Origin: a virus
Length of the DNA: 36,992 nt
Strand: one strand, 5' to 3'
Virus genome (UHGV): UHGV-0136957
Each line of letters opens with the position of its first letter. Within the stretch, counting starts at the first letter, position 1. Of this stretch, positions 474 to 36,992 are shown piece by piece. Made by a program: the position numbers and the translations under genes. The notes below the pieces were generated by a model. The model did not search any database and had not been told where the DNA came from. It saw only the letters and a program-made list of their open reading frames with translations.

Positions 474-666
474 ACCTCCTAGTCAAAGAAAAATACTTAA
501 AAAGGGGCTTGTAGCGACTGACTAGGAGGCTTTGAAAGCCCCTATTTAAGCATTTTTACACAAACGGAGACTCTTATGAACTCTTGCAGGAGGTGAGCCC
601 CCGTTTGTGTAAAAGTAAAAACTCTTTTTCAAAGCACTAAAACCCCCAACCGCAAGGGTTGGGGTA
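474..666 (-). promoter_or_regulatory. Structured rep leader with three elements: a GC hairpin (644-664); a terminator-like hairpin (503-543, followed by a U-tract) whose loop carries an anti-SD; and an 11-nt perfect complement between anti-SD (519-529) and SD (475-485)
   Basis: Read directly; see the finding on the rep leader. Confidence 0.45.
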
Positions 667-701
667 AAAGGTTAATCAATGAAAAAGGTAAAAACGAACG
701 A

Positions 702-712
702 ATTATAACATA
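702..712 (-). promoter_or_regulatory. Extended -10 promoter (TGtTATAAT) directed toward the rep leader
   Basis: Minus-sense ttatgTTATAATtcgttcg. Confidence 0.45.
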
Positions 713-756
713 AAAACCTTAAAATTTTTCTTAAAGTATGAATTTTTTTTAAATAC

Positions 757-16901: not shown

Positions 16902-18119
16902 TTATCCTTTCATCTTTAACAAAAGCTCATCAATTTTTGAGCTGTCGTCTGTAATTTTTTGATTTGCGCTATCAGCGAATTTTGGGGCTCTCAATAAAAG
17001 AGCTGTCTTAAATGCGCTTTTAGCATCAACACCGCTTGAAAGCTCGCTATTTGTAAGCGTTTCAAAACCTATTTTATAAATTTCGCTTTCGCTTTTTCCA
17101 GCGTAATCAAAGCCTTGCCCTAGTGCTTTTGAAACTTCGGCATAGCTGTCTTGTATGCGTTTGTTTTCGCCAAGCATAGTGTCCTTAAAGGCTTTAAATT
17201 TGCTTTCCATAATTTTGTCAAGTCCATCTACGAATTCAGCGACTTTTTTGCCCTCATCATCGTCATCGCAAGTTTTGTTTTCGCCATCATCTTGCGTTTT
17301 AGGCTCATTTCCGCCGTTTTCGTCTGTAACTTTTGGCTCATTTTCGCTGTCATCATCTTGCGTTTTAGGCTCTTCGTCTTTAACGCCCAAAAGCTCAATG
17401 ATTTTAGCAAGTTTTTCACCATCGTCAGCCTCACCCTTTGCGATTTCCAAAAGTGCTTTTGCCTTGTTTTCAAGGCTATCCTCAACTTTTGGCTCTACGG
17501 GTTCGGCACCATCGCTATCTTTGAATTTTTTGATAAGCTCGACCAAGCTATCGTAAAATTTAGATTTAGCCATTTCTTGTCCTTTCGTTAAAATTGGTTT
17601 TTCGTCTAAAATTCGCAAGTCTCTACCGCTACGCCCTTTTTCAACAACTGCTAGATGATTAACACAGCTAACTTCTTGTATAGCGCTATAATCTTCGCCG
17701 TTAAACCTACCTTTGCTTTCGCTAATGTCGCCTGTGTATCCAGGAGACAACTCGACAAGTCCATTTTCAATAGCATTGATAAGCTCGGGGTTATAAATGA
17801 TTAAATCCGCTTTAAGCATTAAACTATCCGCATCAGCCGTAACATTACTACCTATCGCCCCATCAGCTTGCGGAACGCCATCTTTACCCACCCACTCGTG
17901 TTTCCACTTAATAGGTTTATTCGCAAAGCTATCTTTATTTTTTAGCAAGGTTTCAAATGGGCGATAAACCCTTACAATTTCATCGCTTTGCGAAGTGCCG
18001 TCAATTTCGCTTTTTAGATACTCAAACACGCCAGCCTTTGCAATAGGGTTGTCCTTGACTATAAGATAACCATTTTCATCTTTGCTTCTGTGAGATGAGA
18101 AATCTATAAATTTAATCAT
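16902..18119 (-). CDS. Head maturation protease / scaffold fusion (Mu gpI/Z-like) with an acidic low-complexity repeat region
   Basis: Track ORF trimmed to the ATG (MIKFIDF) with an AAAGG RBS; acidic repeats EPKTQDD...; lies between the F-like gene and the capsid gene. Confidence 0.5.
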   Translation of the reverse strand: MIKFIDFSSHRSKDENGYLIVKDNPIAKAGVFEYLKSEIDGTSQSDEIVRVYRPFETLLKNKDSFANKPIKWKHEWVGKDGVPQADGAIGSNVTADADSLMLKADLIIYNPELINAIENGLVELSPGYTGDISESKGRFNGEDYSAIQEVSCVNHLAVVEKGRSGRDLRILDEKPILTKGQEMAKSKFYDSLVELIKKFKDSDGAEPVEPKVEDSLENKAKALLEIAKGEADDGEKLAKIIELLGVKDEEPKTQDDDSENEPKVTDENGGNEPKTQDDGENKTCDDDDEGKKVAEFVDGLDKIMESKFKAFKDTMLGENKRIQDSYAEVSKALGQGFDYAGKSESEIYKIGFETLTNSELSSGVDAKSAFKTALLLRAPKFADSANQKITDDSSKIDELLLKMKG

Positions 18120-18154
18120 AGCGTAACGCCTTTCGATTTGTAATTTCAAATCAT

Positions 18155-18165
18155 ATTATAACATA
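18155..18165 (-). promoter_or_regulatory. Late promoter, extended -10 (TGtTATAAT) upstream of the protease/scaffold gene
   Basis: Minus-sense tatgTTATAATatgatttgaaattacaaatcgAAAGGcgttacgctATG. Confidence 0.5.
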
Positions 18166-18216
18166 TAAAATCATTTTTTGATACTCTTTAAAAAACAAAG
18201 AAATTTTTAAGTTTTT

Positions 18217-18227
18217 TATGTTATAAT
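18217..18227 (+). promoter_or_regulatory. Plus-strand extended -10 promoter motif (tatgTTATAAT); a second one (tgaTATAAT) lies at 18385-18393
   Basis: Same motif as the minus-strand late promoters, but on the opposite strand and inside an intergenic region. Confidence 0.4.
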
Positions 18228-18426
18228 TACCTTGTTTTTACCTTCTATAATCTCTTTTTTAGCCCCCGCTCGGGGGCGACTTTTAAGAAGTTTTATAAAG
18301 GGGCGTTAAAACTTTTTTTTAGAAAAAGGTAAAGGATGGTTCAAAAAACGCCCCTTTATAAGATTTTACAAATTTACAAATTTATGATATAATTGCTTGT
18401 TTTCATTATATTTCCTTTTTATGTTT

Positions 18427-18459
18427 CCCCTTGCGCTTTGCGTAAGGGGTTTATTTTTT
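18427..18459 (+). terminator. Plus-strand intrinsic terminator (10-bp stem ccccttgcgc/gcgtaagggg, loop ttt, then tttatttttt)
   Basis: Read directly. On the minus strand the hairpin is followed by A-rich sequence, so it works only in the plus (antisense) direction. Confidence 0.6.
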
Positions 18460-19344
18460 CTCAACTAATACGAAATAATCACCCGCGAGCGCGTCCTTTA
18501 CCTTTTTAAGCTCTTGGGTAGGTAAAACAAAAAGGGCTTTTTGTGAACATCTACAATTCACGCGGTCGCCACAATGTCCCCTATTTCCGTAGCTGTCAAT
18601 AATTGCGGTCGGTTCGCTATATTTATAAATTCGCCCGTCAAGGTGTATGTGTCCGCCCGCGCCCGTTGAAACTCGCTCGTCCTTACTTGTAAGCCACACA
18701 TAATACTCAAAACCCAACTGCTCGGCTCTCGCTTGCTGATAGTCGTTTGCAGCCTTTGCGGTTTGGTCTCTTGCGATTAAACGCGCTCTTTTTTCACTTA
18801 TGCCCTGATATTGTCTAGTTAGTTTAAAAATCGCCTCTTCGTCAAAATTTAAAATGCCGTTTAAAAACCCCTGTCGGTATCGCTCCATAATATCGCTAGG
18901 GATTGATTGTATAAGGGCTAAATTTCGTTCGTAAATCGCTGACATACTCTTTTTAACGCTCATTGTTTTAATTGCAAGAGCTGAAACACTCGCGTCTTTT
19001 AAAGGCGTGTTTTTTAGCTGATTTGCTAAATTTATATCAATATACCCAGCGGTTTGATTAACGAGCTTTCTACTCAAAACTTTTGCACGCTCGTTGATTT
19101 TCTTTTGCCAATCTCTTAAAAGGGCGTTTAGCTCAAAAGCAAGCTGTTTGGGCGTGTTTTTATCCAAATTTTGCTTAATTTTCGCAAGTCCCCAAAAAGT
19201 AACGCTCTTATTTATAGCTTTTGAAATTTCACCCAACTGCTTTTTAAGGCTGTTTTCAATAGCTTTGCTTGCCAAAATGGCTTTAAGCGTTATCGGTTTG
19301 GCTTGTGATTTGCGTTTGCTCGTTTTCTTGTCCGTTTTTGCCAT
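18451..19344 (-). CDS. Mu F-like head morphogenesis protein
   Basis: Size 297 aa; follows the portal, overlapping it by 62 nt; C-terminal Cys/His cluster HCGDRVNCRC. Confidence 0.5.
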   Translation of the reverse strand: MAKTDKKTSKRKSQAKPITLKAILASKAIENSLKKQLGEISKAINKSVTFWGLAKIKQNLDKNTPKQLAFELNALLRDWQKKINERAKVLSRKLVNQTAGYIDINLANQLKNTPLKDASVSALAIKTMSVKKSMSAIYERNLALIQSIPSDIMERYRQGFLNGILNFDEEAIFKLTRQYQGISEKRARLIARDQTAKAANDYQQARAEQLGFEYYVWLTSKDERVSTGAGGHIHLDGRIYKYSEPTAIIDSYGNRGHCGDRVNCRCSQKALFVLPTQELKKVKDALAGDYFVLVEKK

Positions 19345-29421: not shown

Positions 29422-29450
29422 ATTATAACATAAAAAATTTTTTATGTCAA
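29422..29450 (-). promoter_or_regulatory. Early promoter TTGACA-17-TATAAT upstream of ssb
   Basis: Minus-sense cTTGACAtaaaaaattttttatgtTATAATttgtacg...AAAGGGAGGcttaaaATG. Confidence 0.6.
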
Positions 29451-31408: not shown

Positions 31409-31810
31409 TCAAGTTTTTTTAAGAAAAATTGAAAAATCTTTTTCAAATTTTGATTTATGATTTTTCAAAATGTCTAACGCTTTTTGATAAATACTCTCAA
31501 CAAACTGCAAACGAGTAATTTTTGCTTTTTTGTAGTTTTTAGCGAATTTATCTCTTTCGCTTTGGTTTTTCTCACAAAAAACCAAAATTCTTTCGATTTG
31601 AGAAAGACTTATCACTAAAAAATCCTGCGTTTTTTCGCAATTTCTCAACTTTGTGCCTTTTGTAAAAATAAAAGGCTGTTTTAGTCTCTTTTTAGACAAA
31701 ATAATGCCTGTGTCTTGCAAAATTTGATAAAAAAGCGACTTGCGCTCTAAAATCAAATTTGACAATATAAATTCATCATCATTTAGTGCATCTTTCTCAC
31801 ACTTAATCAT
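31409..31810 (-). CDS. Hypothetical protein
   Basis: Track ORF trimmed to MIKCEKD, whose ATG overlaps the upstream stop (ATGATTAA coupling). Confidence 0.4.
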   Translation of the reverse strand: MIKCEKDALNDDEFILSNLILERKSLFYQILQDTGIILSKKRLKQPFIFTKGTKLRNCEKTQDFLVISLSQIERILVFCEKNQSERDKFAKNYKKAKITRLQFVESIYQKALDILKNHKSKFEKDFSIFLKKT

Positions 31811-32657
31811 TTTCGCCCCCTTGTAAAAATTTTTCGATTTTCTCACTTAAATATATCTGCCCTTTGCCCGTGATGAGCGTTTGCGTGTATGTATTTAAGC
31901 CCTTTTGCGTGGCATAAGTCCCCTCTTTCAACTCAAAAAGCCCTAAATTTAGATATTTCTGATAAGGCTGATTAAACGCATTTAAAAAAGAGTTTTCGCG
32001 CAAATAGGCAAATAATTTTTTTTCGCCAAAGTCCTTTATACCCAAAATTTTCGCAAATTCATTAACGCTGATTGAATTCACACTATGCGCTACATTTTCG
32101 GCAAATTCTACCAAAGGCGCATTTTTTTGGGCTTGCGCTAAAAGTCGCTCATTTTCAAGGGCGAGCCGCCCAGCTTCAAGTAAAGCCTCAGCGTAAGTTT
32201 TGGGTATAGCGTGCGTTTGCACTTCATATTTGCCTATTTTTCTTATGCTAGGTAAAACCTCATCGCAAACCCAACGCCTAAAAGGTTTTGCTTTGGGCGA
32301 TTTTGAACGCATTAAAATAAAATACAATTCATTTTCTCTTAACATTGTAAAATTTTTAATACCGAAACCCGTGTCAAAACTGGCGGAATTTAATTCCCCT
32401 AGCTCAAACTCTGCTTTTATAGCGTTTGCTACCTTATTGACACTATCCAAATTTAAAATTTTACAAATATCTGCAAGACAAAAAAGCGGATTTTCGCTAT
32501 CGCCCAGCACTCGCACTTTGCCAAAGTCTGCATTTTCAAAGCACTTTAAAGCACTTTGCGCCGTTTCGCATGTTTCAGTTGGTAAATTTTCCTTGCTAAC
32601 TAAAATTCCCTTACCCATACTATCAAAAAGCGTAGGTTCATTATTGAAATTTTCCAT
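31803..32657 (-). CDS. Phage antirepressor (BRO-N domain plus KilA-C/ANT C-terminal domain)
   Basis: BRO-N-like block FGKVRVLGDSENPLFCLADICKILNL; C-terminal block TYAEALLEAGRLALENERL...EFAKILGI. The start is moved to the internal ATG (MENFNNEP), which has an AAAGGAG RBS. Confidence 0.65.
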   Translation of the reverse strand: MENFNNEPTLFDSMGKGILVSKENLPTETCETAQSALKCFENADFGKVRVLGDSENPLFCLADICKILNLDSVNKVANAIKAEFELGELNSASFDTGFGIKNFTMLRENELYFILMRSKSPKAKPFRRWVCDEVLPSIRKIGKYEVQTHAIPKTYAEALLEAGRLALENERLLAQAQKNAPLVEFAENVAHSVNSISVNEFAKILGIKDFGEKKLFAYLRENSFLNAFNQPYQKYLNLGLFELKEGTYATQKGLNTYTQTLITGKGQIYLSEKIEKFLQGGEND

Positions 32658-32677
32658 TTCGTCTCCTTTTTCATAAA

Positions 32678-33055
32678 TCATTTTAAGCCTTTCAAGCGAG
32701 CCAGCCTATCACATTTTTTTTTAAAATAGCGCAAATTTTGCTCTTTACTTTTTAAAAGCTCTAAAACATAGACTTTTGCTTTGTCTTTGTCTTTGATTTT
32801 GGCTATTTTTCGTGCTGTTTTTTGCATAAAATCACTATAAACGCCTCTTTCGTGCGGGTATTCGTAAATATCACTCATCACTAAAAGCGCAAAGCTCTCT
32901 TCACCCTCGTGTATGTAGCCCAACGCAAGCACCGCTAACAGCTCGTTTTGCGCTTGATGAATTTCATACAAACACTCATTCATCGACTGCTTTGGGTTGA
33001 AACCTACGCCAAACGCAAGAGATACCGCAAAAATCAAAATCAACGCTTTAAACAT
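32678..33055 (-). CDS. Secreted or periplasmic hypothetical protein with an N-terminal signal peptide (moron-like)
   Basis: N-terminus MFKALILIFAVSLAFGVGF is hydrophobic, with an Ala/Gly cleavage-like site. Confidence 0.45.
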   Translation of the reverse strand: MFKALILIFAVSLAFGVGFNPKQSMNECLYEIHQAQNELLAVLALGYIHEGEESFALLVMSDIYEYPHERGVYSDFMQKTARKIAKIKDKDKAKVYVLELLKSKEQNLRYFKKKCDRLARLKGLK

Positions 33056-34525: not shown

Positions 34526-34554
34526 ATTATAACAAAAAAAAGTTTTTTTGTCAA
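34526..34554 (-). promoter_or_regulatory. Consensus sigma70-type early promoter TTGACA-17-TATAAT
   Basis: Minus-sense cTTGACAaaaaaacttttttttgtTATAATtttcgcaag...AAGGAGgaaattATG. Confidence 0.6.
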
Positions 34555-36386: not shown

Positions 36387-36992
36387 CGAAATCCTCCGTA
36401 TTTGATTTTTGAAAATTCAAGGCTTTTAAATCGTCATCGCTGTAATATCTATCGTTCAAATCGGTTGTAACATACTTTTTAGCAAGGTCGCCCCTTGCCT
36501 TATTGCGCTCGCGGGCGTAGGCAGAGTTTTCAAAGTTAATTTTTCGTGGCTCGAATAAGCCCTGCCATCCGTTTGTAATACTATTTTCTATGCTGTCATA
36601 AGCCCCTATGCCTAGCTTAATGAGCTTATTGATGATTTTAACTGCGCCCGTTTCAGTTATCGGCTTTTTAATCTCATCTCTATGTTTTGCGAATTCCAAA
36701 ACATCAGCCAGCGTGAAATGGTGTATTTTGTCTTTGTGAGCGTTAAAAGCGTTTGTAATGTTTAAAGCACTATTAGCTTTTTTAGCTTTTGGCTTTTTAA
36801 CACTTAAATCGCTTTGTGTTTGTGATGAATTCTCAAAAGCAGAATTTTCACACTCAAAAAAAGTGCTTGCGCTTTGTTCTTTTGGTATTGTTTCTTTTGT
36901 TTTTGTATTCTTTTGATTTTGTAATATAGGTAGTTTAGGGGTATTTTTACCCTTATCGTTCGGGGTATTTTTACCATTATCGTTCGGGGTAT
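36373..36992 (-). CDS. Replication-initiator-like protein, 3' part (C-terminal domain), in frame with the 5' part across the window junction
   Basis: Track ORF 36373..36699 begins at an internal TTG. The same frame stays open upstream through 36992 (...KGKNTPKLPILQNQKNTKTKETIPKEQSASTFFECENS...HHFTLADVLEFAKHRDEIKK...). It joins the frame of the ORF at 1..469 exactly. Confidence 0.55.
   Translation of the reverse strand, partial: TPNDNGKNTPNDKGKNTPKLPILQNQKNTKTKETIPKEQSASTFFECENSAFENSSQTQSDLSVKKPKAKKANSALNITNAFNAHKDKIHHFTLADVLEFAKHRDEIKKPITETGAVKIINKLIKLGIGAYDSIENSITNGWQGLFEPRKINFENSAYARERNKARGDLAKKYVTTDLNDRYYSDDDLKALNFQKSNTEDFDGNN
36928..36992. repeat. Same 24-bp tandem array (about 2.5 units) as at positions 1-116; the sequence is seamless if the ends are joined
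   Basis: Read directly: ...ggggtatttttacccttatcgttcggggtatttttaccattatcgttcggggtat, continuing into ttttaccattatcg... at position 1. Confidence 0.9.

Follow-up and report, generated by a model that had tools for sequence, protein, structure and literature searches.

The UHGV virus genome UHGV-0136957, whose full stretch of 36,992 nt is referred to here as the window, carries all of its long open reading frames (ORFs) on the minus strand. We examined a 331-bp gap between two of its genes, one encoding an F protein with a Phage_Mu_F head-morphogenesis domain (18451-19344, minus strand) and one encoding a head maturation protease of the DUF2213/Pa193_gp24 family (16902-18119, minus strand, ATG at 18119-18117), downstream of which lie the cement and capsid genes. 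The GC content of the gap is 26-32%, compared with 40-46% in its flanks. An original prediction had read the gap as a structured region inside the late operon that gives rise to an antisense or small RNA. The two domain families confirm its naming of the flanking genes, and the promoter motifs, GC hairpin, inverted repeat and terminator that it listed are all present where it had placed them; it had missed a sense promoter, the paralogy of the two plus-strand promoters, and the division of the region into two separate units. The promoter and terminator modules of the gap are oriented against the genes, are under selection, and are non-coding.

Searches with the F and protease proteins, and inspection of the genomic context of their matches, yielded eight distinct versions of the gap from metagenomes: that of the window (the same as L004), L002, L017, L022, L024, L025, L026, and L027. 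These variants are closely related, with protease identities of 87-94%, apart from L026, the protease of which is only 73% identical. IMG/VR contained one variant only, and there were no annotated homologs of the gap in phage or plasmid collections, only 56-nt promoter-like matches with E values of 8e-3 or weaker. A further contig, L013, was rejected as probably chimeric, the upstream part being unrelated. The identities of gap segments given below are mean pairwise values over the eight gap variants, for which the value of the whole gap is 0.72.

Promoters and predicted transcription units of the gap

In Campylobacter jejuni, TGxTATAAT with A/T-rich sequence upstream is the measured sigma-70 consensus, found at ~89% of transcription start sites (PMC3656092). 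The window contains 13 exact matches to this Campylobacter consensus, TGNTATAAT, against 2.0 +/- 1.4 expected, and a count of 13 was reached in 0 of 100 shuffles. Eleven of the matches are on the gene strand, all of them in or at intergenic gaps; nine of the 11 stand directly before genes, ~20-35 nt upstream of a Shine-Dalgarno sequence and start codon, suggesting that the motif marks the real promoters of the phage. These 11 sense-strand TGnTATAAT sites provide a practical promoter map for the phage. The other two matches are the only ones on the plus strand, and both are inside the 331-bp gap. When this AT-rich gap was subjected to 20,000 dinucleotide shuffles, the probability of at least two plus-strand matches was 2e-4, and the three matches observed over both strands were never reached. 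All three gap promoters conform to the extended -10 consensus and have A/T-rich upstream regions. Elsewhere on the minus strand, perfect 12/12 promoters (TTGACA, 17 nt, TATAAT, with TG) are found at 34526-34554 and 29422-29450, before small genes of unknown function and the SSB gene.

The sense promoter of the gap, with the extended -10 element TGTTATAAT at 18155-18163 (minus strand), lies 35 nt upstream of the protease ATG and would serve the protease, cement, and capsid genes; the protease 5' untranslated region contains the Shine-Dalgarno sequence AAAGG at 18133-18129. This promoter is conserved among the gap variants (identity 0.90) and has an equivalent in most short-gap relatives. Its presence makes the gap an operon boundary with a divergent promoter pair, and the earlier placement inside the late operon has to be given up, since a conserved sense promoter precedes the protease both here and in relatives that lack the cassette.

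On the plus strand, P1 (extended -10 TGTTATAAT at 18219-18227) is divergent from the protease promoter, with a predicted start near G18234. Its hexamer, TATAAT, is present in 8/8 variants and takes the full TGNTATAAT form in six of them, L024 and L025 reading TAATATAAT. P2, also on the plus strand, has a TTTACA -35 element at 18365-18370, a 17-nt spacer, and TGATATAAT at 18385-18393, which amounts to an 11/12 promoter match plus TG; its predicted start is near 18399, and TGNTAT(A/G)AT is found there in all eight variants. The two promoters are paralogous and share a 23-nt direct repeat (18215-18237 / 18381-18403).

Behind each plus-strand promoter we predict a small RNA (sRNA). The 5' region of sRNA-A is GUUUUUACCUUCUAUAAUCUCUUUUUUA (18234-18261, plus strand), 28 nt of U/C-rich sequence with the anti-Shine-Dalgarno core ACCUUCU. 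It is followed by T1 (18262-18284, plus strand), which consists of a GC hairpin, GCCCCC/GGGGGC (6 bp), at 18262-18277 and then GACUUUU; in the window T1 is a weak terminator, but in L017 and L025 a true U5-6 tract follows the hairpin. The predicted sRNA-A would extend from ~18234 to ~18285 (~52 nt) if ended by T1, or to ~18371 (~138 nt) if ended after the long hairpin described below. The 5' region of sRNA-B is GUUUUCAUUAUAUUUCCUUUUUAUGUUU (18399-18426, plus strand), ~27 nt, likewise U/C-rich. It is the complement of a canonical ribosome-binding site followed by AUG and AAA, matching exactly the complement of AAAAAGGAAAUAUAAUGAAAAC (Shine-Dalgarno, spacer, AUG, AAA). Both 5' regions are predicted to be unstructured, being unpaired in minimum free energy as well as centroid folds. 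The predicted sRNA-B would run from ~18399 to 18459, ~61 nt. Where a single plus-strand transcript of 60-230 nt had been envisaged, we find two tandem units instead, and L026 has three promoter-hairpin-U units on the plus strand.

The intrinsic terminator T2 (18427-18459, plus strand only) closes the second unit with a hairpin of 10 pairs (seven G-C, one G.U) at 18427-18449 and then UUUAUUUUUU / TTTATTTTTT. Terminator prediction recovers it from the plus strand only, in keeping with the direction first assigned to it, and it is the strongest in the 10 kb scanned. The folding energy of T2 is -17.5 kcal/mol on the plus strand (z = -6.1) versus -13.2 kcal/mol on the minus strand. Plus-strand hairpins are as stable as their minus-strand counterparts or more so because a G.U pair on the plus strand becomes an A.C mismatch on the minus strand; over the variants, the plus-strand RNA folds equally well or better in 15 of 21 hairpin-variant combinations.

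The U tract of T2 is the complement of the last F codons (K-K-stop), and the overlap of sRNA-B with F is limited to the stop codon and two Lys codons (18451-18459, 9 nt), the remainder facing untranslated sequence. For the RNAs to act as antisense and nothing else, sense transcription would therefore have to read through from F. A small non-coding RNA, as originally envisaged, agrees with the conserved motifs and the lack of a conserved ORF. The further idea of a barrier against antisense readthrough found no support: the antisense RNA would itself start from promoters within the region.

Conservation and competing interpretations

The sense promoter, P1, P2, both U/C-rich 5' regions, and a T2-type terminator are kept in 8/8 variants. 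Conservation in relatives, which the original prediction had named as a check, holds for the architecture in all eight variants and fails for more distant relatives, from which the cassette is absent. Within the gap, the sRNA-B 5' region is the most conserved segment (identity 0.95), and high values are also found for the -10 boxes of P2 (0.94) and P1 (0.86) and for the sRNA-A 5' region (0.87). The hairpin stems of T1 and T2 have identities of 0.63 and 0.72, the two arms of the long hairpin 0.70 and 0.68, the spacer between the divergent promoters 0.68, and the long-hairpin loop 0.36. Conservation is accordingly higher in the single-stranded 5' regions than in the structural parts. With a covariance model of sRNA-B, the seven close variants score 74-87 bits and L026 (unit 3) scores 35 bits. 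The F protein of all eight carriers, which have three F alleles between them, terminates in KK* (U6 on the plus strand); that of the cassette-less relatives checked terminates in KS* or NS*.

The eight variants have no plus-strand ORF in common. As candidates for a plus-strand protein gene we considered an ORF of 18 amino acids (aa) in the loop of the long hairpin (MVQKTPLYKILQIYKFMI) and TTG ORFs of 23-38 aa; they are conserved in no other variant and were rejected. Because the plus-strand promoters match the consensus, are its sole plus-strand matches, are kept in 8/8 variants while the spacers drift, and accompany no conserved ORF, short non-coding plus-strand RNAs are the best reading of the region.

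We favor, with about even confidence, the interpretation that the gap is an accessory cassette of two tandem small non-coding RNA genes that run opposite to all protein genes and act by base pairing. Each gene would consist of a sigma-70 extended -10 promoter, an unstructured, U/C-rich stretch of ~27 nt that includes an anti-Shine-Dalgarno core, and an intrinsic terminator, and the RNAs, when produced, would pair through their conserved 5' regions. In cis, the RNAs would be expected to pair with sense read-through RNA from the terminase-portal-F genes, since no sense-strand terminator is called between the F and protease genes. The resulting double-stranded RNA may separate or destabilize the read-through message, and could split the packaging and head messages. 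In trans, the RNAs could possibly pair with ribosome-binding sites. Perfect complementarity to the target is always given for a purely cis-antisense RNA, which has no need of sequence conservation; that conservation is highest in the single-stranded 5' regions favors sequence-specific pairing of the trans type.

Several observations weigh against two base-pairing RNAs. T1 is poor as a terminator in the window and has decayed in L002, and a T-rich plus strand by itself favors G.U pairs and U tracts. The stems stay paired through U.G intermediates and a few double changes (in T1, C-G to U-A or U.G); the double changes affect just two T1 pairs and one T2 pair, and since the variants are closely related, this covariation is thin, supportive but not proof. 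Rfam gives 0 matches at the gathering score in the whole window, the best sub-threshold match being rseX (31.9 bits against a gathering score of 50); the sub-threshold matches were dismissed as chance level. The best partners of sRNA-B in the phage are generic translation-initiation regions, at -15 to -21 kcal/mol versus -31.5 kcal/mol for the cis site. For sRNA-A no site within the phage is better than shuffles, and no specific trans target was found within the phage. Lastly, the ribosome-binding site and start of a mini-ORF on the opposite strand account equally well for the conservation seen in the sRNA-B 5' region.

This mini-ORF, MKTSNYIINL* (18374-18406, minus strand), is preceded by a strong Shine-Dalgarno sequence. 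Were the small gene-strand ORF after F (MKT...) the selected element, sRNA-B would be its antisense repressor, in the manner of a type I toxin-antitoxin system or of a translational-coupling device. The Shine-Dalgarno sequence (AAAAAGGAAAU), the ATG, and the first two to three codons are conserved in 7/8 variants, the ORF has 16 aa in L002, L022, L024, and L027, and its ribosome-binding site and start codon are exactly covered by sRNA-B. We nevertheless give this possibility a slim chance. The ORF has a length of 10, 16, 16, 16, 16, 33, or 44 aa, its stop is not conserved, the changes are mostly non-synonymous, and beyond codon 6 the window copy is divergent. For a membrane toxin the peptide lacks sufficient hydrophobicity, and it does not fit a type I toxin; codons 5-8 are the complement of the P2 -10 box, and L026 is without the ORF yet retains a unit there. 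Any sequence complementary to a ribosome-binding site necessarily reads as a ribosome-binding site and AUG on the opposite strand, and the mini-ORF is most simply seen as the complementary shadow of this part of sRNA-B, not as a gene.

A different function might reside in the act of transcription, with P1 and P2, as strong promoters, firing head-on into polymerase arriving from terminase-portal-F, so that the cassette is an insulator at the operon boundary, by interference or collision, and the short RNAs are by-products. The missing sense-strand terminator suits such interference, as does the separate sense promoter at 18163-18155, which restarts transcription; the cassette-less relatives also carry a promoter here, consistent with an operon boundary. 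We consider interference unlikely. It needs promoters and terminators only and leaves the conservation of the 5' regions (0.87, 0.95) unexplained, together with the three L026 units, whose bodies are different yet similarly U/C-rich, and in relatives a gap of 52-90 bp that has no antisense promoter is enough for this boundary. That the plus-strand terminators serve, as part of the same arrangement, to keep antisense transcripts out of F agrees with the location of plus-only terminators right at the F stop codon, and seems to us improbable as well.

The inverted repeat, the accessory slot, and related units

The region upstream of P2 contains a perfect 15-bp inverted repeat (18293-18307 / 18347-18361) with a spacer of 39 nt. 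The repeat extends to 20-nt arms (18288-18307 / 18347-18366) and forms the core of a long hairpin of ~79 nt (18288-18366, plus strand) with its loop at 18308-18346. This hairpin folds at -33.3 kcal/mol on the plus strand versus -21.6 kcal/mol on the minus strand, and is probably a second terminator of the predicted sRNA-A, acting on read-through from T1. It is absent in L025; a position in it passes from U-A through U.G to C-G across the variants. The loop has one orientation in the window and L022, in the latter for the whole element including the arms, and the opposite orientation in L017, L024, L027, and L002. Since inversion leaves the stem intact, the hairpin could still terminate sRNA-A transcripts that read through T1. 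The orientations are accounted for by one or two inversions, most likely through passive flipping of the hairpin loop. Passive spontaneous flipping of hairpin loops between short inverted repeats is known, for example, in plastid non-coding DNA. The 37,590-bp L022-type contig L023 (ERZ15610116 NODE_1301) ends exactly at the outer edge of an inverted-repeat arm, which is compatible with a break in the assembly brought about either by mixed orientations or by the hairpin. Two other contigs, L003 and L005, end at T2.

Alternatively, the inverted-repeat element could be a programmed invertible switch, the orientation of which would set either a purine-rich, Shine-Dalgarno-like loop that sequesters the U/C-rich sRNA 5' regions or a pyrimidine-rich loop. 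Both orientations do occur among close relatives for a segment flanked by inverted repeats, the break of L023 at a repeat arm is what a mixed-orientation assembly bubble would yield, and modest pairing is predicted between the purine-rich strand of the loop and the 5' regions (-5.6 to -9.9 versus -1.6 to -4.0 kcal/mol). However, one or two rare events suffice for the data, five independent L017-type contigs have a single orientation, L025 is without the element, and 39-45 bp is a very short spacer for recombinase-mediated inversion. No invertase was found among the 28 proteins scanned, a scan that covered part of the ORFs. Altogether, we regard such a switch as highly improbable.

Gaps with the cassette measure 283-440 bp, compared with 52-90 bp in relatives without it (protease at most 56% identical), in which the sense promoter mostly stands alone. 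The slot between F and the protease also holds other cargo, namely small sense-strand genes in DA10 (four) and L032, another gene in L033, and a reverse-oriented 64-aa ORF in L036 (~1170-1440); the last indicates that the slot accepts cargo in either orientation. The gap cassette matches an accessory, moron-like slot filled with putative RNA genes, having its own promoters and terminators, a presence/absence pattern, and a deviant composition. L022 has, at ~1690-1760, a ~100-bp insert between the long hairpin and P2 that contains a 23-aa hydrophobic ORF (MSIYDYYLCMAIIAFIIFTMIWL) after a Shine-Dalgarno sequence, on the same strand as the sRNAs; it could encode a small membrane peptide as further cargo. 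On the other side of the junction, three F alleles with 52-55% protein identity (that of the window; L017/L022/L026; L024/L025/L027/L002) are joined to nearly the same cassette and protease module, which makes the F/protease junction a mosaic recombination boundary.

A recombination hotspot could also have captured reversed promoter-leader-terminator modules that are functionless debris and have not yet decayed. Consistent with this, 40 nt that include P1 and the first transcribed nucleotides (18205-18244) are 87.5% identical (E = 1e-5) to the promoter and leader of the replication operon (724-685, minus strand), the duplicate covering the promoter and the first 17 transcribed nt. The three divergent F alleles on one module, the varying cargo of the slot in other phages, and the closeness of the variants point the same way. 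Debris would not be expected to show uneven conservation, from 0.36 to 0.95, that follows the predicted functional parts, nor promoter hexamers that are intact in 8/8 variants; the F C-terminus is KK* in all carriers, and in L026 the architecture persists with renewed sequences and three units. We therefore think it quite unlikely that the cassette is without function. If the RNAs are not made, the region would still be a clear example of a recombination hotspot that gathers promoter and terminator modules.

The sequence duplicated in P1 belongs to a paralogous unit at 632-724 (minus strand), with the promoter TGTTATAAT at 710-702, a U/C-rich start, 'GUUUUUACCUU', and a hairpin at 664-644 followed by GUUUUAG. 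The replication leader is ~230 nt long and has further hairpins at ~600-560 and 545-500, the ATG of the replication initiator being at 469; the layout of the 632-724 unit looks like a promoter-proximal terminator or attenuator. Another unit composed of promoter, short RNA, and terminator occupies 35251-35176 (minus strand), just upstream of a DUF5675 gene (ATG 35165). Its promoter is TGCTATAAT, its RNA ~65 nt, and its terminator, GTGGGGGCGCAAGCCCCCAT plus U5, is strong. This unit has the 12-mer GTCTCCTTTGTG in common with unit 2 of L026, and GTCTCCGTTTGTGT is found at 575-562 of the window. Outside the sRNA-B position of the cassette, the top matches to the sRNA-B covariance model are the 632-687 unit and unit 1 of L026, which are weak (~21 bits, E ~0.07-0.08) and score no better than a chance match inside a coding region.

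With two to three candidate members between the head genes, one at the start of the replication-operon leader, and another in the early region, a dispersed family is plausible, the duplication of P1 being its only solid link. Taken furthest, this phage group would carry dispersed tiny RNA genes, each with a promoter, a U/C-rich RNA, and a terminator, whose generic anti-ribosome-binding-site 5' regions re-program the translation of host or phage messages, in a genome whose protein genes all point one way and whose scanned proteins include no repressor, while the flip-flop hairpin toggles a purine-rich sponge loop; we hold this to be improbable.

Among deposited phages, the closest are DA10, PC22, and PC11, all temperate and from Campylobacter, at ~67% nucleotide identity in coding parts only. 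From the Mu F domain we had first assumed a Mu-like phage. This assumption was dropped because there is no large transposase ORF, because the genome encodes a lambda-O-like replication initiator and a DnaC-like loader, and because its nearest phages are DA10, PC11, and PC22; an analogy to the Mu late promoter was dropped along with it. The lambda-O-like initiator gene, with its 24-nt iterons, spans the window ends, indicating that the window is a circularly permuted complete genome. The repeats in question, at least four in tandem (GATAAGGGTAAAAATACCCCGAAC), are located at 1-140 / 36940-36992, at the left end and within the initiator gene, and are probably origin iterons. Other products of the window include an Ant-like anti-repressor (31803-32681), Erf, an exonuclease, SSB, and two DNA methyltransferases. 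Neither an integrase nor a repressor was found among the 28 window proteins scanned, and the window contains no transfer RNA or transfer-messenger RNA gene. Likewise, no prophage copy was found in 185,579 representative genomes with protein patterns or with a 30-nt sRNA-B motif.

Relation to known systems

The OOP RNA of lambda and the Sar RNA of P22 are discrete RNAs of ~60-80 nt, each with its own constitutive sigma-70 promoter and intrinsic terminator and each convergent with a phage gene. OOP overlaps the 3' end of cII, and Sar overlaps the ribosome-binding site of ant. Both lie in immunity or regulatory regions and overlap real coding sequence or a ribosome-binding site, whereas the present units overlap F by 9 nt and otherwise face untranslated sequence. 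The gap units also differ in that two to three of them stand in tandem, between head genes, and are optional among relatives, and they have no sequence similarity to OOP or Sar. STnc6030 of the Salmonella prophage BTP1, reported in a paper that also mentions OOP, is an antisense RNA in late structural genes with its own promoter; it is proposed to pair with the late polycistronic message and is associated with superinfection exclusion (PMC7067206). At ~500-786 nt, STnc6030 overlaps the coding sequence of two genes, while the gap units are predicted to be ~50-140 nt, are intergenic, and have conserved single-stranded 5' regions.

Within the same host group, Campylobacter CJnc190 represses ptmG by pairing a C/U-rich loop with the ribosome-binding site (PMC8687705). 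It provides a precedent for the trans mode, as a short RNA whose C/U-rich region pairs with a ribosome-binding site and start codon. CJnc190 uses a loop, is processed by RNase III, and is chromosomal; in contrast, the gap units have a U/C-rich single-stranded 5' region, are phage-borne, and have no Rfam match. The flipped loop has its counterparts in plastid small inversions and bacterial invertons, which it resembles in that a segment of 39-45 bp between arms of 15-20 bp has one orientation in some close relatives and the opposite one in others. Its segment is far shorter than that of a typical bacterial inverton, and its inversion is documented by comparing the sequences of relatives.

As independent promoter-terminator units between conserved genes, with deviant composition and variable presence, the gap units resemble phage morons and prophage sRNAs such as DicF, AgvB/AsxR, and StxS. 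Classic morons are protein-coding and usually point in the late-gene direction, whereas the gap cassette is reverse-oriented, tandem, and located in a Campylobacter DA10-like phage. The known prophage sRNA examples come from enterobacterial lambdoid phages. To our knowledge, hardly any sRNAs have been described from phages other than enterobacterial lambdoid ones, and in the literature we found no report of an sRNA from Campylobacter temperate phages. Prophage sRNA cargo is among the subjects reviewed in PMC12197685. If the RNAs are made, the cassette would offer a small and testable case of RNA cargo carried in an accessory slot of a phage, and could account for a separation of head- and packaging-gene expression without a sense terminator. 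Its variants would form a natural series of two to three tandem units with conserved seeds, suited to target finding in a host that lacks Hfq. The gap units are most likely small regulatory RNAs, undescribed so far for this phage group but of a known kind: they would join the phage-borne small or antisense RNA genes carried in an accessory slot.

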